A stretch of 64,000 bases of DNA from a bacterium (GCA_037143135.1 JBAWZH010000001.1:9553-73552); one strand, 5' to 3'; shown: positions 1 through 53,979, counted from the stretch's first letter. Numbers and translations are program-made. The notes: generated by a model not told the origin, from the sequence alone.

Positions 1-1
1 C

Positions 2-1984
2 GAAAAAGGGATTGCCGAAAAACTTGATGAACAGCTGAACCTTCTTGCAAGATTTGACCGCCCTATTCCAGATCGTCTCGAAGAACGTGCCCACGCACTG
101 ATTGATGCCCATCATCTTGCACAAGAGAGGCGTCGCAAAAGATGGATGGTTACAGCTGCTGTCGGCATCGTTCTAATTGCGAGCGCAGTAGCATTCGTGT
201 TTATTCGGCACAGTCATAAAGAGATAAAAGCCCAACTGTTGAATAATTTGGCGAATGCATACAAGGTTGAGGACGTAGAACGCTTCAACATGTTGTTATC
301 CCGTACAGAACGAGACCAGTCATGGCTCATGCGAGACCCGGATGTTAGACTATGGGCACAGAAGAGTGCGCACTTAGCAGGTCTTTTAGCCAAGAAACAA
401 AGTTCATTCCTGCAGTCACTCTCACGGTTGGAGTCAATTCGAGATGGCGGGTTCAAGCAGGGATTAGACGGCATTGAAGATCTCATCACAGTTGCTAAAA
501 ATAATGTGACTCAAGGTGCTGACCGTGGACGTTTAGCAGTAATTCTTCAAGAGTGGGAGTCGCATAAGCTTGCAAATCAGGCTGAAATAGATCGTCAGGC
601 AGCAGCGTCTATTGACGAGATTACGTACTCCCTTGAAAAAATAGCAAGTCTCTGTGTTACCAATTGGGCGTCTGCTAAATCTGAACTGGCTGAGTTGCGG
701 TTCAAAGCCAAAGCGGTTGAAAATAAGATTGAAAGTGCATCTCCTGAACCGAAAGCAAGGATGGCATCGCAGATCAGCAGAATTGACGCGATCTGCAAGG
801 AAATAGAATGCAAGGAGCGGCAGCTTCAAGTAATTCGTGAAGCTTCAACATTGCGCGACTATTTGAATGGTGTTCAGACTTATGTTCGAGCTTTTCCAAA
901 TGATAAGAGCAGCAACTTGATGAAAGATGTTTTACGGGAACAGAGTGACTATCTATCATTCATTGAACCATCATTTAACTGCAATTCAAGCAATCCCTTC
1001 TGGTATTCCCTTTCTAAAGATCGTGCAGCGATAACCCAACTTACAACAGAGAAATGGCCAGAGGTTAAAACCCTTTTGATGGGCTTGAATCAAGAAACGA
1101 GATTAATGGAGCTCTGGGAATGCGACACGACCAAAGGGAAAGTATTCTTCGAAGGGAAGCCGAAGGAAGTCTACCTTAAAGGTTTCAGGGAATATGAGGG
1201 CTCTGCTTATACACCAGGTGAGTCCGACATTCAGCCTGAATTTAAATCTACTACAGTTGACGGGAATACCATTAAGTCAGCGCGAATTATGTCGCATTGT
1301 GACTTTGTAAAAGGAGTCATTAGCATGGCTAGGTTCTCGACGGCGAGCACAGCGCCAGACGATTTGATGAATAAAATGCAAGAACTTTATGAAACTAATG
1401 GGATATCACCCCTTTTGAAGATTCGCTTGATGGGTATACTTTTCGATAGCTTAACAACGTTGATCGGTCAAGATCAGATCCCCGGAGGCAGGTCACTAAC
1501 ACGTGATTTGAAATCTATTGATTCGGATCTCCATTGGTTGTGTATTCGGAATAGAGACGTATTGATTGCCAACAAAAAGGCAGAGACCATCATGCGGCCA
1601 TACTTTGATGGCGGATCTCTGTTCCGGCGAAACCGTTTTAATAACGATGTTCGAAACCTATGCCTGCAAAGGAGCATTAGGTGGCTCGGATATGCTGATT
1701 TGGAAGATTCTTCCAAGGTAATTTGGAAAACACAGTCTAAACCTGTAGAAATCTGGATCGTGAGATCATCAGGCAGTAATGGATTGCAGGTTATACTAGC
1801 CGCAGAACGAAAGGGCGAAGTTATGACTCAATATGTGCCGTACATTTGTGGAGAACCACTTTTTGCGCCGGCTGATGACATTGCAACACGAGTTCATATG
1901 ACTAAACTAAAAACCAAATATAACCTCACAGAAACTAAGACTTTAAAATGGCCATTGGTGTGGCCGGCAAATTTCCGGCAATGA
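2..1984 (+). CDS. Membrane-anchored protein of unknown function; 5' end lies outside the window
   Basis: The frame of ORF 146..1984 has no stop back to base 2 (48 sense codons before the ATG), so the gene probably starts upstream. RRRKRW is followed by TM helix VTAAVGIVLIASAVAFVFI. The stop overlaps the next start (ATGA at 1981). No family recognised. Confidence 0.55.
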   Translation, partial: EKGIAEKLDEQLNLLARFDRPIPDRLEERAHALIDAHHLAQERRRKRWMVTAAVGIVLIASAVAFVFIRHSHKEIKAQLLNNLANAYKVEDVERFNMLLSRTERDQSWLMRDPDVRLWAQKSAHLAGLLAKKQSSFLQSLSRLESIRDGGFKQGLDGIEDLITVAKNNVTQGADRGRLAVILQEWESHKLANQAEIDRQAAASIDEITYSLEKIASLCVTNWASAKSELAELRFKAKAVENKIESASPEPKARMASQISRIDAICKEIECKERQLQVIREASTLRDYLNGVQTYVRAFPNDKSSNLMKDVLREQSDYLSFIEPSFNCNSSNPFWYSLSKDRAAITQLTTEKWPEVKTLLMGLNQETRLMELWECDTTKGKVFFEGKPKEVYLKGFREYEGSAYTPGESDIQPEFKSTTVDGNTIKSARIMSHCDFVKGVISMARFSTASTAPDDLMNKMQELYETNGISPLLKIRLMGILFDSLTTLIGQDQIPGGRSLTRDLKSIDSDLHWLCIRNRDVLIANKKAETIMRPYFDGGSLFRRNRFNNDVRNLCLQRSIRWLGYADLEDSSKVIWKTQSKPVEIWIVRSSGSNGLQVILAAERKGEVMTQYVPYICGEPLFAPADDIATRVHMTKLKTKYNLTETKTLKWPLVWPANFRQ

Positions 1985-3180
1985 ATGATCGAGATTCAAT
2001 TGATACGCGGAACCACGGACTGATACATGTGAGGTGGCGTGGAGTTGTAACCGGGCCTTATCTTGAGCAGACAATTCTTCAAATGCTGCGCGACAATAGC
2101 ATCACAAAGCACCACGAAATATCGAGAGACAGTGTTCGTTGGAGTTCGATCGCTCGAAGTGACTTATTGTCGAAGGCGTTTAATCAAAGCAGTAATGCAA
2201 ATTCTCAGGCCAAAGGTATTGTTGTGAATCACTCGGCAACAAAATCAATGCACAATGCGATATCCTTACAGGATCGGCGAAGCGAGCACGGGACGGGTAT
2301 TGCGCCAAACCGTGAATGCGGCAATCAGGATCCCCTCGATATCAGCGTCTCATCTCATCCCCTAGCCATGGTTTTGTTTGAAATTAAATCCGTTCCCTGG
2401 ATTCTTGCATTTGGCCTGTCCCCGCTGTTGATTCTGTTTCTGCAATCACTTCTAGGGTTATACTTTGCTCAAATCGCATGGCTTTTTAGTGCATACTTTT
2501 GCGCTTTATGGGCCTATATAGTCGGGAGACTCGCAGATCGGAATACTGAGACATGGAAAACAGGCATTTTATATGCCGTATTTACTGCCTTTATTGGAAT
2601 CGCAATGTTGCTTATTTGGCGATTCATACCGGTTATCGGGTCACTTTATGGCGCTATTGAAAGCGCGAATCCTATTAAGCGTCTGTTGGGTTTTGTTTTT
2701 GGTGTCGGCATTTGTGAGGAACTATGCAAGGCAGCCCCTTTGCTGATATTTGGGCTACGTTCCAAAATACTGCAATCTCCAGTTGATGGGCTTTTCTTAG
2801 GTATGATGTCAGGATTGGGTTTCGCCATGAACGAAGGCGTTGGATATACGATACAATACTGGTCAGCCGCGTCTGATCTGGGAGCCACATCTTTTGAACA
2901 ATACGGACAGATATTAGTTGTTCAATTGGTTCGATTCATGTCTCTTCCTCTATTGCATGCTGCTTGGGCAGGATTAGTCGGCTATGGTATAGCTTATGCG
3001 TTTCTCAATGCCCGTTGGGAGTTTGTCTTCCTTAGCATTGGTGCTGCGGCAATATTACATGGTTTCTACAACTTTGCGTCTCCGACAGTGTATTCACTTT
3101 TGATTGCAGGGTTATCGATGTCATTGACTCTGAGTTTACTTGTCAGAGAAACTCAATCCCACAGGAGGTGTTTTTCGTGA
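1981..3180 (+). CDS. PrsW-family intramembrane protease with N-terminal GYF_2-like domain
   Basis: The multi-TM C-terminal half carries PrsW-type motifs: GICEELCKAAPLL (EExxK), GLGFAMNEGVGY, LLHAAWAGLVGYG and ILHGFYNF. The N-terminus IHVRWRGVVTGPYLEQTILQMLRDNSITKHHEISRDSVRWSSI resembles GYF_2. Start moved from 1948 to ATG 1981, which overlaps the upstream stop. Confidence 0.7.
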   Translation: MNDRDSIDTRNHGLIHVRWRGVVTGPYLEQTILQMLRDNSITKHHEISRDSVRWSSIARSDLLSKAFNQSSNANSQAKGIVVNHSATKSMHNAISLQDRRSEHGTGIAPNRECGNQDPLDISVSSHPLAMVLFEIKSVPWILAFGLSPLLILFLQSLLGLYFAQIAWLFSAYFCALWAYIVGRLADRNTETWKTGILYAVFTAFIGIAMLLIWRFIPVIGSLYGAIESANPIKRLLGFVFGVGICEELCKAAPLLIFGLRSKILQSPVDGLFLGMMSGLGFAMNEGVGYTIQYWSAASDLGATSFEQYGQILVVQLVRFMSLPLLHAAWAGLVGYGIAYAFLNARWEFVFLSIGAAAILHGFYNFASPTVYSLLIAGLSMSLTLSLLVRETQSHRRCFS

Positions 3181-4139
3181 GTGACACATATTATCTTCGT
3201 TGGAAATCCCAAGTCACTGGTCCTTACCAAGATGAGGACATAAGGACAATGCTTGAAGAAGCAAGGATTACAAAACACCATCAAGTCTCGACAGATCAAA
3301 CAACATGGATCTCCCTAATAGAATCAGAGGCTTTTCGAAACAATTGCCGTGTTACGCTTGCTCCTAACGTAATCCAAGGTGCCGCTCAGGTAATTAGCGC
3401 GACACCAGTACGCAATCCTGATTGGGAATCGAACACGGGCCGTCTTCGTGTTAAAACGGCTGAAGACATTGCCGATGAATCGATGTGGTATTATGTTGAT
3501 GGCAGTTCTTCAGCGGGACCCGTAAGTGGTGCTGAGTTACAACGACTTGCTGATGAAGGTGTAATAGCAGGTCAAAGTCCAATTTGCCGAGAAGGCGAGG
3601 AGCGCTGGGTCAAGGCAATAACTGTATTCCCCAGTTACTGGTCTGATCAGCCGCGCTCTGTAGATCGAAGTGGTCAAGGGTCTTTGGCTGAGTCTTCTGA
3701 TTTTAGATATGCAGGCTTTTGGATTCGTTTTTGTGCATTATTCATAGACTCAATAATTGTCGGTATTTTTGCGGTTATTACAGAATTTGTCGTTTGTTTT
3801 GCGCTGGGGCTTTCGCTCGGTGCCGCTGGCGCCAATATTGCCTCGATCACATCAAAAGCTGCCCTTCTAGCCATGGCCGTAGGTGCTACAGTCAATTGGC
3901 TCTACTATGCTGCTGGTGAATCTTCTATGGCTCAGGCTACTCTAGGAAAACGCGCTATGGGGATAATTGTCACCGATATGAACGGAAAACGAATCACGTT
4001 CGGACATGCCACTGGGCGATACATAGGGAAGTTTATCTCTAGTATTTTATTGTGCGTTGGGTATCTGATGGTGGCCTTTACTGAAAAGAAACAAGGATTG
4101 CATGACATTATGGCAGGCACATTAGTGCTTCGGAAATAG
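3177..4139 (+). CDS. RDD-family membrane protein with two N-terminal GYF_2-like modules
   Basis: RDD-type membrane domain (RYAGFWIRFCALFIDSIIVG ... QGLHDIMAGTLVL). Two GYF_2-like modules (YYLRWKSQVTGPY..., WYYVDGSSSAGPVSGAELQRLADEGVI...). AGGAGG at 3163-3168 lies 8 nt before GTG 3177, which overlaps the upstream stop (GTGA). The ORF-track start is 3168. Confidence 0.7.
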   Translation: MSDTYYLRWKSQVTGPYQDEDIRTMLEEARITKHHQVSTDQTTWISLIESEAFRNNCRVTLAPNVIQGAAQVISATPVRNPDWESNTGRLRVKTAEDIADESMWYYVDGSSSAGPVSGAELQRLADEGVIAGQSPICREGEERWVKAITVFPSYWSDQPRSVDRSGQGSLAESSDFRYAGFWIRFCALFIDSIIVGIFAVITEFVVCFALGLSLGAAGANIASITSKAALLAMAVGATVNWLYYAAGESSMAQATLGKRAMGIIVTDMNGKRITFGHATGRYIGKFISSILLCVGYLMVAFTEKKQGLHDIMAGTLVLRK

Positions 4140-4174
4140 GGTGCCTTTTTGAGCAATAAGAAAGGGAATGAACG

Positions 4175-5053
4175 ATGACGGAGACAAACCACGAGAAACT
4201 TATTCGCATTCTCGATTGGCGAAAAGAAGATATTGAGCAAAGGATGGGCTTCAAGGGGGGCAAATACACTGATGTTAATAATTTTCTGGCCTTTGGAATA
4301 GCCGCGCTTGTGACGATATTGTTTTATGGTGCGTTGATCGGAACCGGGGAGACTTTGCGTCGGGCGAGTTTCAGCCAAACCTTTTTAGACCGGGGGCCTA
4401 CCCCATACTTCATAATGTTCTTCACCTTTTGGTCACTGAGTACTTTAGCGCTCAAATGGCGAAAACTATTATTTCAGAAAAAAGCCCTTGATCTGGAAAT
4501 TGTACCTCACTCTCACGACTTCTCCCTAGCTCCTGCAACTGCGAGAGATGTTCTAGATCGTATGTACGGGCTTGTCGATGATCCCAAACATTTTGTCCTT
4601 TTCAATAGGATTGAACGCGCATTATTGAACTTGCACAACATAGGGATGATATCTGACGTATCTGAAATGCTTCGATCCCAGGCGCAAAATGATGAGGATC
4701 AGATGGAGTCGAGTTATGGTCTTATACGAGGCTTCATCTGGGGTGTCCCGATTCTCGGATTCATAGGCACAGTGCTCGGATTATCCATTGCCATTGGAAA
4801 GTTTGGAGCCGTACTGAGTGCTGGTGATGCCGTATTACAATTAAAGACATCCCTCACAGAAGTGACTTCCGGGCTTTCTGTTGCCTTCGACTGCACATTT
4901 CTGGCCCTTGTCTCGGCATTTGTGATGCAACTCATATTGACAGCCCTCAAGAAACAAGAGGAAGCCTTCTTTGATGATTGTAAGGACTATTGCCACCGGC
5001 ACATTATCAGCAAATTGCGGCTTAGTCACTTGCAGGGCGAGACTCAAGGGTAA
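4175..5053 (+). CDS. MotA/TolQ/ExbB-family ion-channel (stator-type) protein
   Basis: Two N-terminal TM helices, a cytoplasmic insert, then the family-typical TM pair GFIWGVPILGFIGTVLGLSIAIG ... GLSVAFDCTFLALVSAFVMQLIL. Confidence 0.7.
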   Translation: MTETNHEKLIRILDWRKEDIEQRMGFKGGKYTDVNNFLAFGIAALVTILFYGALIGTGETLRRASFSQTFLDRGPTPYFIMFFTFWSLSTLALKWRKLLFQKKALDLEIVPHSHDFSLAPATARDVLDRMYGLVDDPKHFVLFNRIERALLNLHNIGMISDVSEMLRSQAQNDEDQMESSYGLIRGFIWGVPILGFIGTVLGLSIAIGKFGAVLSAGDAVLQLKTSLTEVTSGLSVAFDCTFLALVSAFVMQLILTALKKQEEAFFDDCKDYCHRHIISKLRLSHLQGETQG

Positions 5054-5071
5054 TATTAGTCAGGTCAATTC

Positions 5072-5866
5072 ATGAGTCGAAGAAACAGAGAAGATAAAAC
5101 TCCCCCAATTTCGCTATTTGCATTTCAAGACGTCATTTCCACTCTTTCTGGAATATTTATCTTTATTGTTTTGATAATGGCCGTTGATCTTTCGATGCTC
5201 AAGCCTGTTGGGGCGGATGGCGACTCGATCAACGATAAAGCGGTCATAGATCAACTCAGGACCTCCGTCCAGGCACTCAAGCAGCGTATTGTTGCTTTGA
5301 AAAGCGCTATGACCACTTTGAGTTCGCAGGACTCTGTAAATATTGCCGAGAAATGTACTCAGACCGAAAACGAAAATGAACTATTGCTTCGCCGGCATCA
5401 ACAACTCGTTGACGCGAATGTGTTGCTCGAAAAGCGACTGAGTGATGTTAAGCACAAACAGCGTGAGTCTGAGGTTAGGATAAATCCGTTGAACCATGAA
5501 ATTCAACGTTTACAGGCTGCGCTTGCAAAGGCGGCAAAAGAGAAGCAACTCTTTTTCATCCCAGAACCCGGTATAACAAAAACACCCCTTATCGTTGAAT
5601 GTTCAAAGGATAAAATTCGCGCAGGCTTTATTGCGCGTGACGCTGAGCCTGTCGTTTTTGAAATTTCTAACCATGGTTATGAAGCTTTCGAGAAATATAT
5701 TGGGCATCTGTCAATTACCAGTGAATATCTTGTATTTATGATAAAACCTTCAGGCAGTATTCATCGCTCGCGCCTATATTCTATCGCAAAATCTGCCGGC
5801 TTTGACTTGGGATTCGATGCCCTCGAGGAGTCGAAAGCGATTAACTTTGGGAAGGCCACACAGTGA
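5072..5866 (+). CDS. ExbD/TolR-like single-TM protein with a long coiled-coil insert
   Basis: N-terminal PPISLFAFQDVISTLSGIFIFIVLIMAV resembles the ExbD/TolR TM helix with its membrane-edge Asp. About 110 aa of heptad-like Q/E/L/K-rich sequence follows. The C-terminal alpha/beta part (PLIVECSKDKIRAGF ... YLVFMIKPSG ... AKSAGFDLGF) is ExbD-periplasmic-domain-like. Confidence 0.45.
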   Translation: MSRRNREDKTPPISLFAFQDVISTLSGIFIFIVLIMAVDLSMLKPVGADGDSINDKAVIDQLRTSVQALKQRIVALKSAMTTLSSQDSVNIAEKCTQTENENELLLRRHQQLVDANVLLEKRLSDVKHKQRESEVRINPLNHEIQRLQAALAKAAKEKQLFFIPEPGITKTPLIVECSKDKIRAGFIARDAEPVVFEISNHGYEAFEKYIGHLSITSEYLVFMIKPSGSIHRSRLYSIAKSAGFDLGFDALEESKAINFGKATQ

Positions 5867-6768
5867 GGCAACGCGCTGAAAGTGATACAAGCAGTTTTTA
5901 CCTGCTGCTTGACATGATGTGCAACGCATTTGGTGGCATAGTATTCATAGGCTTGCTAATTGCTATCCTGTCTAGCTCCATGAGTCGTCAGGATGCAGAA
6001 AAAAAGAGTAACAGCAGTCGAAACCTCGACAAGGTTGAACAGAAATTAGAGGCTGAACGCCTTGCTAGAGAGCAACAAGAACTTACAGCAGCTCAGAGAC
6101 ATTTGGAAGAAACGTTAAGAAAGATTAAGGGGCCATCTGGGGCAAGTCCAGCAACTGATCTTGCTTCTTTGATCTGTAGCAATGGATTATTACAATCTGC
6201 CTGTGATGCTCTTGCCGCTTCTAACTCATTGATATCTGTTTCAATTTTCGACTCCGAAACATCGATTGAGTTAAATTCAACATCAGCAGCCGACGTTGAA
6301 AAGCAAATCACCCGACTTCGTGCGGATCTTTTACAAAAGCAGGAGGCGTCCAAGGAGACGTTGAGATTACCGCGAGAACATCCTGTTACAGGCAAAAACG
6401 CCGCGTTTATCGGAATTAAGGATGGAAAGTTATATGCGATAAGTAATGTGTCAGGATCTCGTCCGCGTAACTACGACCGTGAGGATGTTGATGTCGAAAG
6501 TGGCCCAGGACGGGACGTGGTCGAGTTACGTAAAAACAGAGGGCAGTTCATTAAGCGGGGTTGCGAAGATGAGGGTAAGTTCGCACAGGCGCTCGCAAGT
6601 TTGAATAGTCATTACGAATTTGTGTCATTTGCAGTGTCTACTAATTCATTTGCTGAGTTTAATTATGTGAAAGCTATTTTTGTCGGGCATGGATTCTTAT
6701 ACAACTGGGTCGTCACAGAGGGAGCCATTGAAATTGTGGTTCAGGATGAACCACTCCGTGTTCAGTGA
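5863..6768 (+). CDS. Second ExbD/TolR-like single-TM protein with coiled-coil insert
   Basis: GTG 5863 overlaps the upstream stop (GTGA), with GGGAAGG 8 nt upstream. The TM segment SFYLLLDMMCNAFGGIVFIGLLIAIL has an Asp at the helix edge. A coiled-coil-like region follows, then a C-terminal alpha/beta domain (AAFIGIKDGKLYAISN ... EFVSFAVSTNSF). Confidence 0.4.
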   Translation: MRQRAESDTSSFYLLLDMMCNAFGGIVFIGLLIAILSSSMSRQDAEKKSNSSRNLDKVEQKLEAERLAREQQELTAAQRHLEETLRKIKGPSGASPATDLASLICSNGLLQSACDALAASNSLISVSIFDSETSIELNSTSAADVEKQITRLRADLLQKQEASKETLRLPREHPVTGKNAAFIGIKDGKLYAISNVSGSRPRNYDREDVDVESGPGRDVVELRKNRGQFIKRGCEDEGKFAQALASLNSHYEFVSFAVSTNSFAEFNYVKAIFVGHGFLYNWVVTEGAIEIVVQDEPLRVQ

Positions 6769-6769
6769 G

Positions 6770-7903
6770 TTATTGATGGAAAGAGCGGGCGATCAACATC
6801 ATTAGGCGTAATTCCTCTTCGGTATAAGCGGCAAGTCGAATAAAAGAATTCGCGTTTTCGGTAAACGATTTCACGCGATCCGCCATAATACCTCTAATGA
6901 CTTGCTCATTTGACATACTTCGATCCCAAGCGCGCGCGGATCCCTCGAGAATTGCACAAAGTGATGCGTGTATAGATTCATTCTTGCGGACAATGTGTAG
7001 ATTGCTCTCCATAGTGATGTTCAGTGTGTGTTCGAGTTGATCCCAAGGTTGGGAATGACCCGTGGATCGTGTGCCTTTGCGCCCTATTAGCATAAATGCA
7101 CGTCCAGTCACATAAGCAGCATCACATGCGCCCTCAACATTGGATGGGCGAATGGCGGATAACTTATCAGCAAGGGAGGGAGATGCTGACATTTCACTTT
7201 CTGTCTGGGACGCGACTACAACCGTTACGTCTGCAAGGAGTCGACTGTAACTGGCTATTGCAGATGAATAGTACGGTGCATCTTCTTGTGCGTATATAAG
7301 TTCCATTTGTTTCTGTATTTTATTAGCCAGATTTGTTGAGTCGGCCACATTGGCGCTCTTCAAAAGAATTACCTGTACCTTTATGGATTGTTTGATTGCG
7401 TTCATAATGCGCTGATAAACACTAGTATCGGGCATCTCTAGATATGCGTTATGATCGTGCTCAATTCGCGTCAACTCTTCGATTCGTTCGCTATTGTCCA
7501 GATCTGATGTGTTTGAGGTGACCTTTCTTACTGCTGAGGCATTATCCATAGGTGTACGAACAGTTGAATTTGTGATGGATTCTACTCCATTAGGGAATTG
7601 ACTCGTCTCTGGGGAAACATTCTCAGGGTGCACTTCGGTCGATGTTTTGCCACTGGATGTGTTTGTTAGATTGGGGCTTGTATCTTTACTTGGATCGCTT
7701 GGTTCTTGCTTCCCTCCTGTGTAGTATTTGACACCTGTAAAGACAGCAAATAGAAGCCCTATAACGGTGATGATGATGATGCTGATGAGAAATAGGTTTG
7801 GAGCCGAGCTATTGCGATCCGGCTTCTTTGTGCTAAGCAGTTCTCTGGGAATACGTGGTGGCCTGGGTGGTGTCAGAGATTGGGTATATTTCTTGTCACT
7901 CAT
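6770..7903 (-). CDS. Hypothetical single-TM anchored protein
   Basis: 377-aa ORF with a basic/Pro-rich N-terminus, TM helix LFLISIIIITVIGLLFAVFTGV, an S/T/N-rich linker and a helical C-terminal domain. No family recognised. Confidence 0.5.
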   Translation of the reverse strand: MSDKKYTQSLTPPRPPRIPRELLSTKKPDRNSSAPNLFLISIIIITVIGLLFAVFTGVKYYTGGKQEPSDPSKDTSPNLTNTSSGKTSTEVHPENVSPETSQFPNGVESITNSTVRTPMDNASAVRKVTSNTSDLDNSERIEELTRIEHDHNAYLEMPDTSVYQRIMNAIKQSIKVQVILLKSANVADSTNLANKIQKQMELIYAQEDAPYYSSAIASYSRLLADVTVVVASQTESEMSASPSLADKLSAIRPSNVEGACDAAYVTGRAFMLIGRKGTRSTGHSQPWDQLEHTLNITMESNLHIVRKNESIHASLCAILEGSARAWDRSMSNEQVIRGIMADRVKSFTENANSFIRLAAYTEEELRLMMLIARSFHQ

Positions 7904-7966: not shown

Positions 7967-8506
7967 TCACTTTCGGATTGTCGACTTCTTCCCTTGATTT
8001 GGTTGCATCCTTGAGTTTCCCGTAAGTTTGCTCTCGCCGATTATTGGATAGAGAAATGCGGACACTTGAGCGGTTGTAGCAGTAGATGCGATGCCCGATG
8101 CTCGAATCGAAACTGGGGGTTGACCAGGCCTATCAACTGTGTAGTTCCCGCCGCTGGATTGCCGGACATAGATAGGCAGTTTCCCTGGCGTGTTGATAGT
8201 GGCACCACCACCAGATGACGGTCTAATGGTGACTGGTAGCTGCCCAGGCATCGACACCGTCGAGCCCCCTCCCGATACTGGCCTCACGTAGGTCGGCAAT
8301 TGCCCTGGGGTGCTGATTATTGCGCCTCCACCTTGATTAGGCCTTACAGAGATGGGTAGCTCACCCGGCCTATTGATCGTTACTCCACCTCCCTGTGCAG
8401 TCCTCACATAGGTCGGAAGCTTGCCGGGTTCTTGAATAATGTAGGATTGAGCTTCTACTGATAATGCGCAGACGAGAAGTGCCAGAATGAAAACTATATT
8501 TTTCAC
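7967..8506 (-). CDS. Secreted protein with tandem 20-aa PGxLPxxVR-x3-GGG repeats
   Basis: Signal peptide MKNIVFILALLVCALSVEA/QS. It has five full copies and one partial copy of PG(K/E/Q)LP(T/I/V)x(V/I)Rxxx(G/S)GGxx(I/V)xx. Confidence 0.6.
   Translation of the reverse strand: MKNIVFILALLVCALSVEAQSYIIQEPGKLPTYVRTAQGGGVTINRPGELPISVRPNQGGGAIISTPGQLPTYVRPVSGGGSTVSMPGQLPVTIRPSSGGGATINTPGKLPIYVRQSSGGNYTVDRPGQPPVSIRASGIASTATTAQVSAFLYPIIGESKLTGNSRMQPNQGKKSTIRK
8090..8428 (-). repeat. In-frame 60-bp tandem repeat array inside CDS 7967..8506
   Basis: Positions derived from protein residues 27 to about 139, which form consecutive 20-aa units. Boundaries are approximate. Confidence 0.6.
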
Positions 8507-9169: not shown

Positions 9170-9652
9170 TCATCGCGGTCTGTACGTGCGGATAAAATTC
9201 ACCAGATCAGATCCTGTCTTGACGATGACGCGCTTTACCGAGCGTCCAAATGCAATTTGCGCATTCGGAAATACTAGAACCGATACGATCCAGGGTTTCC
9301 TCCTGAATAACTGCTCAGTTATGCTCCGTATCCACCGGATGCCCCGGTTGATCTGTGAAATGGGGTTGGAGGAAAAGCGATGGCGGTTGATTAAAAGATG
9401 TTTTCCGTCCCAGGTAACATTCCCCTCATGCGACTTGGTTTCAATGAGGAATATGATGCCATCGGGACGAACAACTACATGATCCAGATTGCCATAAGGA
9501 TATGGCACATTATTCAGTATGAGGCAACCATCTGAGAGAAGGGGTGTCAGCAACCTGCAGATTTCTTGTTCTGCCACCACCCATCGGGCGTTCTCTGTGC
9601 GACTTTCTCGATCATAAGTGGTTTTGCCACGGACGGTGTCTTTCTGAACCAT
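9170..9652 (-). CDS. NERD (nuclease-related) domain protein
   Basis: The core GNLDHVVVRPDGIIFLIETKSHEGNV matches the NERD D...E-x-K pattern. Confidence 0.6.
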   Translation of the reverse strand: MVQKDTVRGKTTYDRESRTENARWVVAEQEICRLLTPLLSDGCLILNNVPYPYGNLDHVVVRPDGIIFLIETKSHEGNVTWDGKHLLINRHRFSSNPISQINRGIRWIRSITEQLFRRKPWIVSVLVFPNAQIAFGRSVKRVIVKTGSDLVNFIRTYRPR

Positions 9653-12217: not shown

Positions 12218-12571
12218 ATGAACGATTCATTAGGCAAACGAATACGTGAGCTTCGAGAAGCCAAGGATCTGTCGCTGAGAGATCTGGCTAAGAAGATTAA
12301 CGTTTCAGCTGCATTCCTGTCAGATGTTGAGTTAGAACGGCGTTATCCCTCCGAGGATAAGCTCTTGCTGCTTGCTACGGAACTTGGTGTCCCGACCGAG
12401 GATCTTCGGCGTTTCGACACGCGGGTGCCAGTGAAAGCTTTGCAGGAGGCATCCCGCCGAGACCCGACGGTAGGAATGGCACTTCGTTCCATTCTAAAAT
12501 CTGGAATCTCGTTCGATGAATTGAATGAGATCGCTCAGAAGAAAAAGGCGGAGGAGGTTGACGAAAAGTGA
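12218..12571 (+). CDS. capH: XRE-family HTH regulator (CapH-like, by context)
   Basis: LGKRIRELREAKDLSLRDLAKKINVSAAFLSDVELERRYPS is a classic XRE/Cro-C1 HTH. The stop overlaps the start of a downstream ImmA/IrrE peptidase, and a CBASS core follows. Confidence 0.75.
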   Translation: MNDSLGKRIRELREAKDLSLRDLAKKINVSAAFLSDVELERRYPSEDKLLLLATELGVPTEDLRRFDTRVPVKALQEASRRDPTVGMALRSILKSGISFDELNEIAQKKKAEEVDEK

Positions 12572-13284
12572 GAACACGCCGATCACAATCAGGTCCCTTC
12601 AAGGAAAAGGTCTATTATCGGGACAGTGATTTCGAGGGTATCTGTCTCGATGCCCTGAAAGCATCAGCCTGCCTCCCCGCTTCACCATCTCCGGTGAGGA
12701 TAGATCGGTTTGTCGAGAAGCATTTCGCTAGTCTCCAGTTTGCGGATCTCGGGCCGAACATCCTTGGTTGTACCGAATTCTCGGCTAAGGGCGTTAGTGC
12801 GATCCTCATATCCTCTTCCTTGGAAGAGGAGCCAGGAAAGCCTGCGGAACGTAGGCTCCGATCCACGATTGCCCACGAAGCTGGCCATGGATTGCTTCAT
12901 GCACATCTGTTTGCCGACTTGGCTGCGGCACAGGCGCAATCGCAATTCGCGGATTGGACGAACCCCTCGAAGCCGCGGATCTTGTGCCGCGAGATTGAGG
13001 GGCTGTCTCCGTCCGTGAGGGTATCTTCATATGCTGGCCGTTGGTGGGAGTATCAGGCAAATAGGTGTATTGGGTCGCTGCTACTTCCTCAGAAACTCTT
13101 CACAGAGGCGATCAGGCCATACGGCCAGATGAAAGGCATGTTGGGAACCCTCGTTGTGCCATCTGACAAACGGCAAGTCGCTGCTGAGGGCTTGGCCGAG
13201 GTGTTTGATGTAAACCCTGCTGCAGTTAGGATTCGGATGGATCAGCTTTTCCCAGAAACTCAGGAGAATCAGCTTTCACTGTGA
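12568..13284 (+). CDS. capP: ImmA/IrrE-family zinc metallopeptidase (CapP-like, by context)
   Basis: HExxH motif in STIAHEAGHGLLHAHLF. GTGA overlap with the XRE gene. Confidence 0.75.
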   Translation: MRTRRSQSGPFKEKVYYRDSDFEGICLDALKASACLPASPSPVRIDRFVEKHFASLQFADLGPNILGCTEFSAKGVSAILISSSLEEEPGKPAERRLRSTIAHEAGHGLLHAHLFADLAAAQAQSQFADWTNPSKPRILCREIEGLSPSVRVSSYAGRWWEYQANRCIGSLLLPQKLFTEAIRPYGQMKGMLGTLVVPSDKRQVAAEGLAEVFDVNPAAVRIRMDQLFPETQENQLSL

Positions 13285-13359
13285 TTTTTTTTGGATTTAG
13301 TGTCCGCTTTGTCGGCTGACACTGTTGTTGTGAGAATACGTAAACTAGGAGACTGAAGA

Positions 13360-13881
13360 ATGACAGACATGACAAATGAGCAGAAATTCCAGGTTCTGAT
13401 GGCCGAGTTGCAGGAACGATACGATTCGTCTCATAAGATCCGGGACCGAAGCACACAGTTCACCTTATGGATTTCAGGTATGGCGATTGGCCTATCGTGG
13501 TTGTTAGTCAGCGAAGCTGTGCTATCCACACTACAAAAAGTCGCGATCACATTGTTGACTCTCGCGCTCTATTTTGGGGCAGTCTTCTTGATTCGTGCCC
13601 TTCATAAGGGTGCCCACGCAAACCGTGAAGCCATGATCAGAACAGAACGGGCGCTAGGCATGTATGAAAAGGGACTGTATTTGCAAGACGTTACATTGCT
13701 TCCTACTCAATATGGGCACACCGTTCCAAAGTGGAGTCACGATTCATGTACGCTCCCAATCTGGTTGACGGTGGTAGCCGTTGCCTTACTGATCCTGACC
13801 TGGACAACCCCATGTTCTCGAAAACAACAGAGTGAATCAACACAACCGCAACAACAGACAGGAGTACACAACCATGGCTGA
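13360..13881 (+). CDS. Small multi-TM protein, candidate CBASS membrane effector
   Basis: It has three predicted TM helices (FTLWISGMAIGLSWLLV, VAITLLTLALYFGAVFLI, LPIWLTVVAVALLILTW). AGGAGA RBS. The 3' end overlaps the CD-NTase start by 8 nt. Confidence 0.5.
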   Translation: MTDMTNEQKFQVLMAELQERYDSSHKIRDRSTQFTLWISGMAIGLSWLLVSEAVLSTLQKVAITLLTLALYFGAVFLIRALHKGAHANREAMIRTERALGMYEKGLYLQDVTLLPTQYGHTVPKWSHDSCTLPIWLTVVAVALLILTWTTPCSRKQQSESTQPQQQTGVHNHG

Positions 13882-14863
13882 CCTACACAGTGAATTCGGA
13901 ACATTCCACGATAAAGTCGCTCTTTCCTCAAGCAAGAAGGCGTCTTTACGCACATCGCGAGACGCCATTCGTGACCGTATTCGCAAACACTTTATTGAGG
14001 TTCTGAAAGTCGATCCTCCAAAGTTCCATGCCCAGGGCTCATTTACCATGGTAACGACAATGAACCCGCTCGACGGCGAGTTCGACATCGACGATGGTGT
14101 TTACCTGCAACACTTGGATCCTCATGACAGCAGCAAATGGCCGACGCCTGAAACCGTCCATGGATGGATCATCGACGCTATTGATGATCATACGGATGAG
14201 AAGCCGATAGACAAGCGCACGTGTGTTCGTGTTCAGTACGCAGGGCAGTATCATGTGGACCTCCCATCCTATGCCAAACTGAATGGCGATTACATGCTGG
14301 CAGTCAAAGGAGATGCCGGTTGGCATCGCAGCGATCCAAAAGCTATCACCGACTGGTTCAAGAAGCGCGTGAAACAGAACGGTGAGCAATTTCGGCGCAT
14401 CGTGCGTTATCTGAAGGCATGGACTGACTACCAGTCTGGGAAGCGTGGTAAGATGCCGAATGGACTGATCATGACCGTTCTGGCATCAGACTGTTTCTGC
14501 GCGGATGCACGAGATGATGTGTCTCTGGCAAATACCGCCGCCGCCATCAAGCGTGCCGTCACACCAGTCTTCTGTGTTCGCAACCCAACTGACACCTCAG
14601 AGGAGATCACACGACGCTTGACAGATGAGCAAAAGAGTCGTTTCCAGGCGGCAATAACGGACTTAGCGGCAGATGGTGCGGCTGCCGTCGCGGAGAAAAG
14701 CAGGAAGAAGGCGTCGAAGCTATGGCAGGGGCAACTGGGTGATCGTTTTCCTCTAATTGATGAAGAGGATAGTAAAGATGAAGACCGAAAGAAAGAGGAT
14801 GCCAACCGACTGGCGGCGTTCTTCGTGTCCACGAAGCCCCCAAAGCCATGGGCATTCCAATGA
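13874..14863 (+). CDS. CD-NTase / SMODS-family cyclic oligonucleotide synthase
   Basis: Pol-beta NTase core QGSFTMVTTMNPLDGEFDIDDGVYL (GS ... DxD). The N-terminal helix pattern (FHDKVALSSSKKASLRTSRDAIRDRIRKHF) is typical of CD-NTases. ATG 13874 has AGGAG upstream; the ORF-track start is 13832. Confidence 0.75.
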   Translation: MADLHSEFGTFHDKVALSSSKKASLRTSRDAIRDRIRKHFIEVLKVDPPKFHAQGSFTMVTTMNPLDGEFDIDDGVYLQHLDPHDSSKWPTPETVHGWIIDAIDDHTDEKPIDKRTCVRVQYAGQYHVDLPSYAKLNGDYMLAVKGDAGWHRSDPKAITDWFKKRVKQNGEQFRRIVRYLKAWTDYQSGKRGKMPNGLIMTVLASDCFCADARDDVSLANTAAAIKRAVTPVFCVRNPTDTSEEITRRLTDEQKSRFQAAITDLAADGAAAVAEKSRKKASKLWQGQLGDRFPLIDEEDSKDEDRKKEDANRLAAFFVSTKPPKPWAFQ

Positions 14864-15672
14864 CTGCCTGGTACCAGATCAACCAGCGGCTCTTTCGGAA
14901 GGAAAAGGCGGCACTAGAAACTGCTCAGCCAGGCATGAGCCTCGAAATACGAGAAACTGGTTTCAGGATCAATCGGGAGCTCAGTCTTAAACGGGAATGC
15001 GCTGTCGCCGCTGGCGTCTTCAGCCTCAAAGCTCCTGGGACGGGAGTCTATGACTATCGGATCGCCGTGCTCCCGCCGGATAACTACCCTGCATCTCCGT
15101 GCATAGTCTTCTGCGATGATCCACGATTACCGATCGGCAACATCGATCGTCACATTCTCTCCGATGGACAGGCATGCCTGGCGGTTCCTGGGGATCTTTG
15201 GCATCGCTGGAGGCCTGAAGACGGCATCGTCGGTTTTCTTGATGAATTCGTTGCGCCATTTCTGGCATGGCAGGTGTACTACGATGCACATGGGTGTCCG
15301 CCTCCTTGGGGACAGCGGGCTCATGGTCTCCTGGGCATAACCGAGTACTACACGGAAGTCTTGGGCATTCCAGCCGAATCCAACATTACCGCATTCATTC
15401 CGCTCATTGCCCGGAAGAATCCCCCACAAGGCCACGAAACATGCCCTTGTGGCTCAGGACTCCGTCTCCGGCATTGCCATATTAAAGAATTAAGAGAAGC
15501 TCGATCACGGATCCCCTGGCAGGCCGCAAAGCAGGATCTCTCCGCCGTATCTCGGATCGTGGGAAACAGGAACAATGGCAATAAACAACCTGGCTCACTC
15601 GCTTCAATAAAGGTGTCTAGTTTTGCAGAATCAAGATCAATGTCCACAACCGTCGCCGCAGGCGAAGGCTGA
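14860..15672 (+). CDS. Prokaryotic E2-like (UBC-fold) protein with C-terminal SEC-C zinc motif
   Basis: IDRHILSDGQACLAVPGD matches the E2 H-x-N/D ... G-x-x-C-L catalytic-Cys loop. C-terminal CPCGSGLRLRHCH is a SEC-C motif. ATG 14860 overlaps the CD-NTase stop (ATGA); the alternative start is 14848. Confidence 0.6.
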   Translation: MTAWYQINQRLFRKEKAALETAQPGMSLEIRETGFRINRELSLKRECAVAAGVFSLKAPGTGVYDYRIAVLPPDNYPASPCIVFCDDPRLPIGNIDRHILSDGQACLAVPGDLWHRWRPEDGIVGFLDEFVAPFLAWQVYYDAHGCPPPWGQRAHGLLGITEYYTEVLGIPAESNITAFIPLIARKNPPQGHETCPCGSGLRLRHCHIKELREARSRIPWQAAKQDLSAVSRIVGNRNNGNKQPGSLASIKVSSFAESRSMSTTVAAGEG

Positions 15673-17269: not shown

Positions 17270-17500
17270 ATGCCACATGAAAAACAGATCAAGCATGATG
17301 ATGTATTGAACGCTGACGAGGCTTCCACCTGGCTTAAAATCCCTAAGTCCACCCTCTACAAGTTATGTAGCGAAGGTGAACTGCCGGCCGCAAAGGTGGG
17401 GCGTCATTGGCGATTCCACCGGGAAACGCTTGAGCAATGGTTGTTAGAGAAGACTCAGCGCCCCCAGGCCGATGACCCAGAAGCCAATTCAGAGGAATAA
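17270..17500 (+). CDS. Excisionase/MerR-superfamily HTH DNA-binding protein
   Basis: LNADEASTWLKIPKSTLYKLCSEGELPAAKVGRHWRFHRETLEQWL matches the excisionase-family HTH. ATG 17270 chosen; the ORF track uses TTG 17255. Confidence 0.7.
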   Translation: MPHEKQIKHDDVLNADEASTWLKIPKSTLYKLCSEGELPAAKVGRHWRFHRETLEQWLLEKTQRPQADDPEANSEE

Positions 17501-17501
17501 T

Positions 17502-18608
17502 ATGCCACTTCTCCAGGAAGGCTTAAATATACGAGGGACATACGAAGTGGAGAAATTCCTCGGCGAGGGCGCTTTTGCCGAGGTTTACCGCGTCCGGCAC
17601 CGGTTTCTTGGCCGACAGGCCATGAAGGTTTTCAAGCGCCTTAACATGACCGAAGAGGAAGTGCTCGATGCGCTGAATGAGGCGATTCTGCTGACGCACC
17701 TCAAACACCCCAATATTGTTAGTGTCCACGATGCAAACGTTTTTGAATTTCCCAAAGGTGTCTGCGGCTACTTCACAATGGAATTTGTGCCAGGGGGCAG
17801 TCTTGATAGGTTTTGGAGATCGCACGGCTCCACTCTTGTCCCGATTGAGACGACGGTCGACGTCATGCGTCAGGTATGCCGGGGTCTTTCCATTGCTCAT
17901 GCAGGAACCCCACCCATCATTCACCGTGACATAAAACCTCAAAATATTCTCGTGGGTTATGAGGCCGACGGGCTTCGCGCCCGAGTAAGCGATTTCGGAT
18001 TAGCCAAGAAGGTTAATCCGCTGACACTCCTTGCAACTGCTGCCGGGACGCTTCAATTCAAACCCCCGGAAACATTTCTGAAGTCGAAGGCAGATTCGTG
18101 TGCAGCTGACGTTTGGGCGCTTGGTGTGACGCTCTACCTCTTATTAACCGATCAATTTCCCTTCGAGCTTGATTCTGATTTGGGCTGGTCAAACAAGAAG
18201 GCATTTGAAAAGGAAATCACTCCTCCCAATTCATGGAACGTCGAAGTCGATCCTGCCCTTGAGAAAATTGTTTACAAATGTCTCAAGCCGAAACCAGAGG
18301 ATCGATATCCGACAGCCAAAGAATTGCTTGAAGCCTTGGAATCCTGGAAAAAGCCTTCACCCTCCAAAATCATCAAGCCGGCAAAAACAGTTTCTTCGGA
18401 AATGTCAAAAAGCATTCTTGGGGCACATTCACCTATCAATCAAGAAGAAGGTCATCGCCTAGTCAAGCAAGCCGTCAAGAAGGCTAAGGAAGAGGGGCGA
18501 TTGTTTGAGGCTGCTGATCTTATGGAAGAGGCTTTTAACAAGTCGCCATCACTTCGGCAGAAGTATGCGAACCAAGTCAAACTATGGCGTTGCGGCATCA
18601 GCATGTAA
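17502..18608 (+). CDS. Hanks-type Ser/Thr protein kinase
   Basis: LGEGAFAEVY (G-loop), QAMKVF (Lys), IIHRDIKPQNIL, VSDFGLAK and GTLQFKPPE are all present. ATG 17502 has GAGGA 5 nt upstream, directly after the HTH stop. Confidence 0.85.
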   Translation: MPLLQEGLNIRGTYEVEKFLGEGAFAEVYRVRHRFLGRQAMKVFKRLNMTEEEVLDALNEAILLTHLKHPNIVSVHDANVFEFPKGVCGYFTMEFVPGGSLDRFWRSHGSTLVPIETTVDVMRQVCRGLSIAHAGTPPIIHRDIKPQNILVGYEADGLRARVSDFGLAKKVNPLTLLATAAGTLQFKPPETFLKSKADSCAADVWALGVTLYLLLTDQFPFELDSDLGWSNKKAFEKEITPPNSWNVEVDPALEKIVYKCLKPKPEDRYPTAKELLEALESWKKPSPSKIIKPAKTVSSEMSKSILGAHSPINQEEGHRLVKQAVKKAKEEGRLFEAADLMEEAFNKSPSLRQKYANQVKLWRCGISM

Positions 18609-18612
18609 ACCA

Positions 18613-21420: not shown

Positions 21421-21470
21421 CCTGACAAAAACTGTCTGATTTTATGTAACACAACGAATAGGAAGCACCT

Positions 21471-22034
21471 ATGAGCAAACAGAAGCGTATGCAGGCGAGT
21501 CCGCCGAGTCGTGGTATTGTCCACATGTTTAACATGCTTAATCTCAAGCTCCCAAAGGAGCTGCGACTTCCTCCCCTCAATGACGCACCTAATTTAAACG
21601 CCCTTAAGACTCGCTTCAATGAGCTTGAAGCATTGTTGGCGCGGTCGAAGACTTCAACCCGAATCTCATCTTCTACCCCGGCTGCACCGAATCTTGATGA
21701 AAAAGCGATTGCGAACCTGGCCACTAATGCTTGGCGTGCTAAAACCAAGATGCTTGACCAGGATTCGGGTGAAGTTAAGGAAGAAATGAAGCGTGTGTAT
21801 CGGCACATTGAAGCTATCTTTGAAACGCTGAAAGGGCTGGGTGCTGAGATTCTTGACCCATGCGGTCGAAATTATGATTCCGGCATGGCGTTAAAGGTTA
21901 TCAGTTTTGAGCCGACCCCGGGAGTTTCAAAGGAAGAAATTAAGGAAACAATCAAACCATCTGTGATGTGGCAAGGACGCCTTATACAAATGGGTGAGGT
22001 AATTGTGGGTACTCCCAGCAAAGTAGATAAATGA
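21471..22034 (+). CDS. GrpE-like nucleotide-exchange-factor homologue
   Basis: The C-terminal part IEAIFETLKGLGAEILDPCGRNYDSGMALKVISFEP ... GRLIQMGEVIVG follows the GrpE four-helix/beta-domain pattern (G-x-E-x-I ... G-x-x-(F/Y)D ... V-x-V). It sits directly upstream of an Hsp70 gene with an ATGA overlap. Confidence 0.55.
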   Translation: MSKQKRMQASPPSRGIVHMFNMLNLKLPKELRLPPLNDAPNLNALKTRFNELEALLARSKTSTRISSSTPAAPNLDEKAIANLATNAWRAKTKMLDQDSGEVKEEMKRVYRHIEAIFETLKGLGAEILDPCGRNYDSGMALKVISFEPTPGVSKEEIKETIKPSVMWQGRLIQMGEVIVGTPSKVDK

Positions 22035-24529: not shown

Positions 24530-24640
24530 GGACGGTACGTCTTACGACCATAATTAGGAGTTCTTTTTGTCAGTACCAAGGCATAAGAAACAGTGATGGA
24601 TTCCAGGGTTAGCGGTCAATGCAAGTGAACGGCGATCTTC

Positions 24641-25897: not shown

Positions 25898-25945
25898 GTG
25901 CGACAATCCGCTTGTGACTGCGGTCATTGCGAGGAAGGTAAAGTA

Positions 25946-31622: not shown

Positions 31623-31719
31623 GTGAGCCGAACATCATCTGTCCAAAGTGCAAGGCGGAAATCAGGCTGTCCGAATCAATATGCTATTGTTTGCATTTTC
31701 GTTATGGAGAACCACTGAA

Positions 31720-33009: not shown

Positions 33010-33011
33010 CC

Positions 33012-47036: not shown

Positions 47037-47064
47037 TCCTATTCTTTTCCTTTCATGATTTCAG

Positions 47065-47388
47065 TTATTCAGCCCCACTGGCGGCTTTTGCCAATGTTTC
47101 GCGGATCAGTTTGAAATCCGTGTCCGCGTAGCGGTGCGGGATGTCATTGAGCCGCCTCTGTGCATGCTCAAGGGCATGTATAAGTTCACGAATCAAATCC
47201 GAGGCGCGATTCTTGGGAAGGTGTCGAGCTATGCCGTCCGACAGGTCAACCCTGACCATCTTCCCCCGGTATTGAACGTCAAACACCGTCGCGATGGACG
47301 CCGGATCCCGCTGAATGGCCAGCGCCTTGCGCGCCGCCTCCATGGGGGTCCTAGCATCTACATCTATTTCCCAACATACACGGATCAT
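47065..47388 (-). CDS. Hypothetical protein
   Basis: 107-aa ORF. Its start overlaps the upstream gene's stop. Confidence 0.45.
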   Translation of the reverse strand: MIRVCWEIDVDARTPMEAARKALAIQRDPASIATVFDVQYRGKMVRVDLSDGIARHLPKNRASDLIRELIHALEHAQRRLNDIPHRYADTDFKLIRETLAKAASGAE

Positions 47389-47612
47389 CGGTACACCTCC
47401 GGGGTTAAATCGTCATGCCAGCCTTCCAATGTAATCAGCGGGTGATAATCAATGGACTCAAGATCGAGGTCGTCGATCTTGGCCACTTCCGCCTGTGCCG
47501 CCAAAACAGCAGCCGAAACGGAATCCGCCTCCACTTGAGCCAGGTATGTGTCGGTCCCAAAACCATCAGCCACATAGTCTGGCCGTAACAAAAGCACTGT
47601 ATATTTCTTCAT
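47385..47612 (-). CDS. Hypothetical protein
   Basis: 75-aa ORF in the operon string. Confidence 0.4.
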   Translation of the reverse strand: MKKYTVLLLRPDYVADGFGTDTYLAQVEADSVSAAVLAAQAEVAKIDDLDLESIDYHPLITLEGWHDDLTPEVYR

Positions 47613-47625
47613 GTCTTGCCTCTCA

Positions 47626-53975: not shown

Positions 53976-53979
53976 GTAC

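Follow-up and report, generated by a model that had tools for sequence, protein, structure and literature searches.

Five kinds of ion-driven 5:2 motor are established: MotAB, ExbBD, TolQR, GldLM and ZorAB. The last of these has been described as a motor that senses phage invasion (PMC11946911). The "GTPase-centric" conflict systems defined by Kaur, Burroughs, Iyer and Aravind in 2020 consist of a DO-GTPase, GAP1, a fibronectin type III (FNIII)-repeat protein and variable effectors; in some planctomycete GAP1-N2 systems, paired GYF domains are fused to trypsin or to a transmembrane (TM)-rich region, and the membrane components of GAP1-N2 systems, among them SLATT pores in fusion with GAP1, are treated as effectors (PMC7159879). 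Bacterial GYF domains bind proline-rich sequences, and in Myxococcus the GYF protein GltJ is the link between the GTPase MglA and the gliding machinery Agl-Glt (PMC11135422). The present analysis concerns an operon at the beginning of a 64-kb stretch of bacterial DNA (GCA_037143135.1, JBAWZH010000001.1:9553-73552; "the window" in what follows). It encodes a MotA-like channel subunit (the A subunit) and two proteins, CC-A and CC-B, which are concluded to function as TolR/ExbD-type B subunits, together with a GTPase and a GAP1 protein. On balance, the evidence leans towards a motor driven by the proton motive force, in which a ring of A subunits and a CC-A/CC-B heterodimer would link the cell envelope to a GTPase switch.

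A literature search returned no paper linking MotA/ExbB to DO-GTPase or GAP1 systems, and none besides that of Kaur et al. on GAP1-N2 systems. Apart from a possible label in Figure 6B, MotA, ExbB, TolQ, PrsW and RDD are not mentioned in the text, legends or supplement of that paper (PMC7159879).

Organisation of the operon and its upstream partners

Positions 1-6768 of the window contain six open reading frames (ORFs), all co-directional on the plus strand and at the coordinates given in a preliminary description of this DNA. They make up the last five and a half of the eight genes of an operon. The first is a fragment of a gene here called g3 (1..1984, +), which encodes the C-terminal 660 residues of a 958-residue bitopic membrane protein. 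It is followed by genes for GYF-PrsW, an intramembrane metalloprotease of the PrsW family whose N-terminal GYF-like domain is divergent (1948..3180, +; likely start ATG at 1981), a GYF-GYF-RDD membrane protein (3168..4139, +; likely start GTG at 3177), the A subunit, a 292-residue member of the MotA/TolQ/ExbB family (4175..5053, +), the TolR-like B-type subunit CC-A (5072..5866, +; 264 residues) and its paralogue CC-B (5863..6768, +; 301 residues). The overlapping or short junctions reported previously are exact: g3 and PrsW overlap in ATGA at 1981, PrsW and RDD in GTGA at 3177, and CC-A and CC-B in GTGA at 5863, while spacers of 35 bp and 18 bp separate RDD from MotA and MotA from CC-A, respectively. 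Profile searches against Pfam recover PrsW (8.7e-27), RDD (1.8e-24), GYF_2 (3.1e-14, in two stretches of the RDD protein) and MotA_ExbB (2.7e-10), and the N-terminus of the PrsW protein matches the GYF region of the RDD protein (phmmer, 1e-08).

The operon had been thought to be truncated by the window edge, and this is indeed the case: the reading frame of g3 stays open as far back as base 2, and the gene is therefore cut. Two contigs, L001 and L002, which are 98-100% identical to the window, reveal the genes lying beyond the edge. The complete L001 gene, which encodes the full 958 residues and is preceded by genes for GAP1 and a GTPase, matches the g3 fragment over residues 299-958 at 98.5% identity. 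The GTPase of both contigs combines FHA, GYF_2 and DO-GTPase2 domains (PF19993, 36.2 bits against a cut-off of 27 bits) and has the Walker A sequence GAPSSGKS; its cysteine pairs are read as a putative zinc ribbon (ZnR). In L001 the GAP1 gene lies 3' of that for the GTPase, and its product carries GAP1-N2 (PF20013, 68.7 bits) and GAP1-M (PF20014, 51.2 bits) domains as well as a predicted TM helix at residues 333-351, with a proline- and lysine-rich stretch before the helix and about 430 residues after it. As judged from this domain content, the operon is a predicted GTPase-centric conflict system of the GAP1-N2/DO-GTPase2 type, in a branch belonging to the PVC phyla (Planctomycetota, Verrucomicrobiota and Lentisphaerota).

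The proline-rich linker of the L001 GAP1 reads RPRPPKKDVPKRK. Such a stretch occurs directly after GAP1-M in 27 of 48 GAP1 orthologues, compared with 2 of 65 g3 and 3 of 83 MotA proteins. Given the binding preference of bacterial GYF domains, we infer from these sequences that GAP1 may recruit GYF-tagged modules.

The g3 protein appears to be an N-in bitopic protein with about 350 cytoplasmic, helical residues and about 590-600 periplasmic ones; in the window its TM helix is encoded at about nucleotides (nt) 149-205, and the orthologues have a single TM segment near residue 350 with Arg/Lys in front of it. It occupies the position expected for the FNIII-repeat protein and evolves fast (about 24-25% identity), and no Pfam family, FNIII included, was recognised in it. 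A role as a TolA/TonB analogue is left as speculation: the TM helix is not conserved and there is no motif of TolA/TonB type.

The A subunit

The preliminary description of gene 4175..5053 as a MotA_ExbB-type channel is borne out by a Pfam match (PF01618) over residues 159-264 that, at 40.5 bits, lies well above the curated cut-off of 22.9 bits. The protein has 1275 homologues, the best 120 of them at 50-77% identity. It is read from its sequence as having four putative TM segments together with a conserved cytoplasmic N-terminus, TM2-TM3 loop and C-terminal tail. Two threonines, T199 in the motif GFIGTV (nt 4769-4771) and T241 in AFDTT (nt 4895-4897), are invariant in 14 sequences spanning 51-77% identity. 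This pair sits in the last two TM helices, where conserved polar (Thr) residues of the family face the aspartate of the B subunit. TM4 aligns to the TolQ segment ALIATAIGL, so that T241 pairs with T178 of TolQ; the register of TM3 is a reading of the motif only.

CC-A and CC-B as probable B-type subunits

A comparison by hhalign shows CC-A and CC-B to be paralogues (96.5%, E 9.4e-10), and each has the single N-terminal TM helix with an aspartate at its edge that had been noted previously. In CC-A this residue, D20 (FQDVIS, nt 5129-5131), is invariant in all 62 aligned orthologues (84 ORFs were read), and the family-level motif is F-x-F-[QA]-D-I-I. In CC-B the corresponding residue, D17 (LLDMMC, nt 5911-5913), is at least 90% conserved (n=69 aligned), within a family motif L-L-L-D-T-x-C-N-x-F-G-G; two variants that lack D17 carry D13, one turn away.

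The alpha/beta C-terminal domain proposed for these proteins is seen in an AlphaFold2 model of CC-A, which consists of a TM helix (residues 15-41), a single helix forming the stalk (residues 55-157, nt 5234-5542, +) and a head (residues 171-250, nt 5582-5821, +) with the topology beta-beta-beta-alpha-beta-alpha-beta and a predicted local distance difference test (pLDDT) score of about 90. The stalk of CC-B is interrupted by a Gly/Pro break and its TolR-fold domain is larger (residues about 165-290, nt 6355-6732, +). A fold search returns TolR rather than OmpA-like domains and thus identifies the periplasmic TolR/ExbD fold, with the caveat that RNase H-like folds share a common topology with the heads and obtain similar scores. 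No OmpA/MotB peptidoglycan-binding domain was found in either protein in Pfam, NCBIfam or PADLOC, and queries with Escherichia coli ExbD and TolR revealed no canonical ExbD/TolR gene among the ORFs of the window and of all locus flanks. A word-indexed search yields few close relatives of CC-A (10), and the operon is conserved on their contigs; a full HMMER search reveals a large and divergent family, with 452 representatives (at 50% identity) at E<1e-30 and 1640 at E<1e-10. The shared architecture, the aspartates and the fold suggest that both proteins very probably derive from TolR/ExbD-type B subunits. In the Verrucomicrobia, CC-A of L078, L080 and L084 has a C-terminal extension of about 185 residues past the TolR-like head; the CC-A ORF of L086 (603 residues) is also extended C-terminally, and CC-B of these four loci has about 310 residues.

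The two stalks are of matched length. The median distance from aspartate to head is 157 residues for CC-A and 155 for CC-B. Over 68 loci this distance spans 135-192 residues, and the two proteins of a locus differ by at most 7 residues in 59 of the 68. The two lengths are correlated across these loci (Spearman 0.78). Control correlations involving g3 length, GTPase length and the MotA loop reach only 0.24-0.35, and shared ancestry alone is therefore insufficient to explain the match. Moreover, across the families the stalks show a hydrophobic periodicity of 3.5 residues (mean z of 2.7 for CC-A and 2.06 for CC-B, against about 0 for controls). Judging from these sequence properties, CC-A and CC-B most likely form a heterodimer, their helices being paired into a stalk.

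Conservation of the operon

A scan of one genome per species identified at least 482 carriers of the MotA-like gene, the best 80 of which were examined; ORFs were classified by phmmer, and counts of upstream genes refer to loci with at least 9 kb of upstream sequence. Almost all of these 80 belong to the Planctomycetota, Verrucomicrobiota and Lentisphaerota. The gene order GTPase-GAP1-g3-[variable]-MotA-CC-A-CC-B is almost invariant among them: GTPase, GAP1 and g3 are all present in 39 of the 42 loci with enough upstream sequence, and CC-A and CC-B follow the MotA-like gene in 53 of the 54 with enough downstream sequence. The sole such locus without CC-A and CC-B is L047, from a Thermoguttaceae metagenome-assembled genome (MAG), in which large unrelated ORFs follow the MotA-like gene (473-1363). 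Median identity is 48.7% for MotA, 39% for the GTPase and about 25% for CC-A, CC-B and g3; the predicted cytoplasmic core is thus constant and the predicted periplasmic parts are fast-evolving.

The slot between g3 and MotA differs from locus to locus. GYF is joined there to PrsW, RDD, TM2, trypsin or unclassified modules, while probes for GYF, PrsW, RDD, TM2 and trypsin recognised nothing in the slot of many verrucomicrobial loci; RDD was detected in just 3 of the distinct loci that were classified (L001, L003 and L040). Since the slot varies in this way, PrsW and RDD are exchangeable GYF-tethered modules rather than a fixed client of the motor. The earlier proposal that the motor feeds PrsW or RDD specifically is consequently not sustained: over the 80 loci the constant partners are DO-GTPase2, GAP1-N2/M and g3, which had escaped notice because they lie partly past the window edge.

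Other variations in layout are confined to particular loci. In the planctomycete loci L011, L017, L021, L023, L024, L025, L030, L033, L051, L054 and L066 an extra 1.1-3.0 kb lies between MotA and CC-A; the insert is about 1.1-1.4 kb long except in L023, and the ORF inserted in L054 has weak GYF similarity. The CC-A and CC-B genes of L013 and L015 are inverted relative to MotA.

A related triad in cyanobacteria

A tblastn search against plasmids gave two MotA-like matches at 27% identity, one in Anabaena cylindrica PCC 7122 (pANACY.03; triad at 8950-11529 of L168) and one in Microcystis aeruginosa NIES-2481 (p1; triad at 8950-11550 of L169). The A subunit of these sister triads, of 466 or 470 residues, has a helical C-terminal tail of about 200 residues. 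It is accompanied by a stalk-less CC-A orthologue of 153 residues (B1), which matches a coil-deleted CC-A profile end to end with 56 bits, and by a CC-B orthologue of 231 or 236 residues (79 bits) in which the aspartate is retained. One of the stalk-less orthologues also matches Pfam ExbD collinearly over residues 8-118 (E 0.0036), with a score of 17.8 bits that is below the 25.4-bit cut-off. No GTPase or GAP1 annotation is present in the roughly 9-kb flanks of either triad. That of Anabaena lies directly 3' of type III-B cmr genes, with viperin downstream, and that of Microcystis neighbours a methylase, a nucleotidyltransferase with SLATT, a large helicase and nucleases. Its occurrence in these two conflict-type contexts indicates that the triad is a portable unit.

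Possible function

The stator-like unit with extended periplasmic stalks that had been proposed for this locus is supported both by its architecture and by structural similarity. Homology, architecture, strict co-occurrence and the agreement of stalk lengths are observed; in the scheme put forward here, the stoichiometry, the flow of ions, the direction in which signals pass and a role in defence are predictions. By analogy with ZorAB (PMC11946911), a ring of A subunits around one CC-A/CC-B heterodimer would form an ion-driven stator unit of the 5:2 type, and the triad would be the constant membrane engine of the GAP1-N2/DO-GTPase2 systems of the PVC branch. The stalk helices, of about 100 residues (about 15 nm), would carry the heads far into the wide periplasm of PVC bacteria, perhaps as far as the peptidoglycan. 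An envelope disturbance, for example phage attack, would free the heads or a plug; ions could then pass the aspartates, and the A ring would turn or shift conformation. The conserved cytoplasmic face of the A subunit would in turn signal to the membrane-anchored GAP1 and to the GTPase switch with its ZnR, FHA and GYF domains. Finally, the proline-rich linker of GAP1 would engage the GYF-tagged, lineage-variable modules (PrsW, trypsin, RDD, TM2), which would act as effectors.

Several results weigh against this scheme. Full-length CC-A and CC-B have no ExbD, TolR, MotB or ZorB match in Pfam, NCBIfam or PADLOC, where they obtain weak sub-threshold matches at most, mostly to coiled-coil families. 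Thirty coil-deleted constructs yielded no match to ExbD (PF02472) in Pfam at E up to 10, and the family profiles, compared with PDB sequences, gave coiled-coil noise and a "MotB-related" chain at an E-value of 0.24. When hhalign was used with an alignment of 42 TolR/ExbD sequences drawn from a metagenome scan (the E. coli TolR sequence used is a 100% match to L088), CC-A aligned collinearly from the TM helix through to the end, at a level that is not significant (P 0.0046, probability 7.6%), and CC-B gave P 0.023; alignments to single E. coli TolR and ExbD sequences were collinear but not significant. The structure models of CC-A and CC-B were built on shallow alignments of 10 and 18 sequences. 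In the cyanobacterial B1 protein the TM aspartate is absent. The 3.5-residue periodicity is not significant in the stalks encoded by the window itself (z 1.05 for CC-A and 0.36 for CC-B). Around the 80 genome loci no enrichment in defence islands was seen, the flanks being heterogeneous and mostly composed of ordinary genes, and the literature search found no experiment on any GAP1-N2 system. Membership of CC-A and CC-B in ExbD/TolR at the sequence level, where scores stay below the profile threshold, is not claimed. Of the likeness to ExbD/TolR/MotB suggested in the preliminary description, similarity to the TolR-type fold therefore stands and profile similarity does not; the heptad-like character of the stalks, likewise, is apparent at the level of the families and weak in the copy of the window.

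The triad might instead be a killing effector, although this seems rather unlikely. The GTPase-GAP1 pair would detect an invader and open the MotA-type channel, and collapse of the proton motive force would lead to death or dormancy (abortive infection), with rotation and the periplasmic stalk serving only as a plug or anchor. This would agree with the classification by Kaur et al. of membrane components of GAP1-N2 systems, among them SLATT-GAP1 fusions, as effectors (PMC7159879); the triad is moreover portable across conflict contexts, like effectors, and its aspartate-lined channel is intact. However, effectors vary between relatives, whereas the triad is the most constant part of these operons, with MotA the best conserved protein, and it is the GYF-fused modules that vary. 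Length-matched stalks of 15 nm bearing fast-evolving TolR-like heads, furthermore, look like a device for reaching and binding rather than a plug.

Somewhat less probable still is a housekeeping Tol/Ton-like envelope machine specific to the PVC group, without a conflict role, that would energise g3 and/or GAP1 as TolA/TonB analogues for outer-membrane maintenance, division or uptake; the GTPase would be a spatial regulator, as MglA is for Agl-Glt. The large number of species-level genomes carrying the MotA-like gene (at least 482) and the mostly ordinary genes flanking the loci would fit such a role, as would the topology of g3 and GAP1, both of which are bitopic, with the N-terminus inside and 430-600 residues in the periplasm. 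The set of a single A subunit and two B paralogues, together with a GTPase and an adaptor bearing GYF, also recalls AglRQS, MglA and GltJ. On the other hand, the TM helix of g3 is not conserved and lacks a TolA/TonB-type motif, and the operon contains no Pal, TonB-dependent receptor or Glt gene. Evolution is rapid in the periplasmic parts (about 25% identity), relatives have exchanged the genes in the middle of the operon, and conservation does not extend to the flanks (143 families in 103 flank ORFs). The families of the core GTPase-GAP1 pair were defined as those of conflict systems, and the operon, with a GC content of 44-46%, lies inside a low-GC island of defence genes of roughly 40 kb. 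That the MotA-like protein is a degenerate scaffold and CC-A and CC-B are coiled-coil tethers whose heads converged on an RNase H-like or TolR-like topology, so that there is no working motor, is improbable.

If the preferred scheme of an envelope-to-GTPase motor is extended to the cyanobacterial triads, a broader proposal can be made, though only tentatively: the A+B1+B2 unit might be a portable engine representing a distinct, previously undescribed branch of 5:2 motors, and an envelope-spanning sensor or transducer of bacterial immunity. In PVC bacteria it might be hard-wired to GTPase-GAP1 and have a 15-nm stalk directed outwards; in cyanobacteria it might have short B subunits and a Zorya-like A tail directed inwards, beside type III CRISPR and viperin. 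After Zorya, this may be the second time that an engine of the flagellar-stator type was taken into a probable immune system. Should the portable-engine proposal be true, a rotary motor would here be coupled to a GTPase for the first time, and stator units would have entered defence twice, independently. The triad family would add to the 5:2 motors a B pair that is an obligate heterodimer, a TolR scaffold with a long, helical, periplasmic insertion as its stalk, and a GTPase switch and GYF adaptors as fixed coupling partners; each newly found 5:2 motor has revealed a new way of converting membrane potential to work. It would also provide a first mechanistic handle on the GTPase-centric GAP1-N2 systems, which are so far computational predictions only. 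Since several carriers are isolate genome records and not MAGs (Victivallis vadensis DSM 14823, Planctomicrobium sp. SH664, Botrimarina colliarenosi Pla108 and Neorhodopirellula pilleata Pla100), these predictions are probably directly testable.

Genomic surroundings

Overall, the window reads as a defence island, or a mobile island, containing CD-NTase, SIR2-HerA, restriction-modification, STAND, NERD and KAP genes. Over about the first 40 kb its GC content is 44-49%; after that it is mostly 50-55%. The association with such islands is strong in the window and in the cyanobacteria and is not general, since the flanks of the 80 genome loci are mostly devoid of defence functions; among the PADLOC matches listed for these flanks, most are to models of the protein-kinase type, for example PD-T4-6.

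Convergent with the operon is a gene for a 377-residue bitopic protein (6770..7903, -), whose cytoplasmic N-terminus contains the proline-rich stretch TPPRPPRIP, a sequence that could be a GYF ligand. Its membership of the system is doubtful: conservation is limited to the closest relatives, L001-L005, and none of the 80 genome loci has it. The next ORF (7967-8506, -) encodes a 179-residue protein with a signal-peptide-like N-terminus and about six tandem repeats of 20 residues (PGxLPxxVRxxxGGGxxxxx); no family match was found, and only the L001 and L002 loci matched. A NERD nuclease-related protein (3.2e-17; 9170-9652, -) is encoded just downstream of the operon region.

Further along, a DncV-like/SMODS nucleotidyltransferase (1.3e-21; 13832-14863, +) is a cyclic-nucleotide synthase of the kind found in the cyclic oligonucleotide-based antiphage signalling system (CBASS); the flanking ORFs at 12568-13881 and 14848-15672 have no Pfam match except for a SEC-C motif in one of them. 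The plus-strand run at 17472-28329 encodes a Ser/Thr kinase, a Sel1-repeat protein (971 residues), an HSP70-like ATPase (832 residues), a TPR+OmpA protein and a STAND/NACHT NTPase, and may be another multi-gene conflict system. HSP70 is a theme of the GAP1-N2 systems of Kaur et al. (PMC7159879); no GAP1 is present in this run. An SNF2-family helicase (28758-31622) precedes a SIR2-HerA defence pair, formed by a SIR2_2 protein and an overlapping HerA (DUF87/HerA_C) ATPase (31648-34784, +). The genes at 35062-39467 (+), for an N6_N4 DNA methylase and then a ResIII/Helicase_C protein with a C-terminal TnsA-like endonuclease domain, look like a type III-like restriction-modification pair. The regions 39714-44436 (+) and 45492-61796 include a KAP-family NTPase and a QueC-like protein beside a TatD DNase; on the minus strand are an AAA ATPase, an N-6 methylase, DUF3150, a phosphoribosyltransferase and a Cdc6/Orc-like AAA protein, and a second HerA-like ATPase lies at 58844-60514 (+).

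Relationship to known motors and conflict systems

No TonB, TolA, Pal or GldK/N gene was found in the operon. The genes lying upstream are those for the GTPase, GAP1 and g3, and not those of an ordinary Ton/Tol/Gld locus. Compared with TolQR and ExbBD, CC-A and CC-B differ by a helix of about 100 residues between TM segment and head and by the lack of a profile match. The B subunit is homodimeric in those motors, whereas two diverged paralogues are present here, and the A subunit is read as having four TM segments, as in MotA, instead of three. The partners are a GTPase, GAP1 and g3 in place of TolA, TonB or Pal. GldLM, the motor of Bacteroidetes gliding and of the type IX secretion system, is also a 5:2 motor, and its B-type subunit, GldM, is dimeric and reaches across the periplasm as a long shaft; this shaft is made of globular domains, in contrast to the helical stalk and TolR head found here, and there is no sequence or domain match.

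The AglRQS motor of Myxococcus is similar in possessing one TolQ-like A subunit and two TolR-like B paralogues and in being governed by a GYF/ZnR membrane adaptor and a GTPase. It differs in that the present operon has neither Glt envelope proteins nor a motility context, in that the GTPase is a DO-GTPase and not the Ras-like MglA, and in the long stalks of the B subunits.

The likeness to ZorAB lies in the use of a MotAB-type unit in a conflict system, coupled to cytoplasmic partners, in weak PADLOC matches of the A subunit to ZorA (TM3/TM4 region only, E 3.6e-05 and weaker) and in the helical cytoplasmic tail, of about 200 residues, carried by the cyanobacterial sister A subunits. In the window, however, the A subunit has no tail and the long helices are periplasmic and belong to the B subunits, of which there are two paralogues; their heads are TolR-like and not OmpA-like peptidoglycan binders, and the partners are DO-GTPase2, GAP1 and GYF-linked modules. 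Membership of Zorya was rejected: PADLOC found no ZorB, C, D, E, F or G, and the A subunit, with 292 residues, is without a tail.

With the GAP1-N2 systems (PMC7159879) the operon shares a zinc-ribbon DO-GTPase2, GAP1-N2 together with GAP1-M, TM-rich components, a spread across planctomycetes and verrucomicrobia, and GYF domains that occur in pairs and are joined to trypsin or TM-rich regions. The expected FNIII-repeat protein was not recognised in g3. The operon differs from the published systems in the constant presence, in this branch, of one MotA-like and two TolR-like genes.

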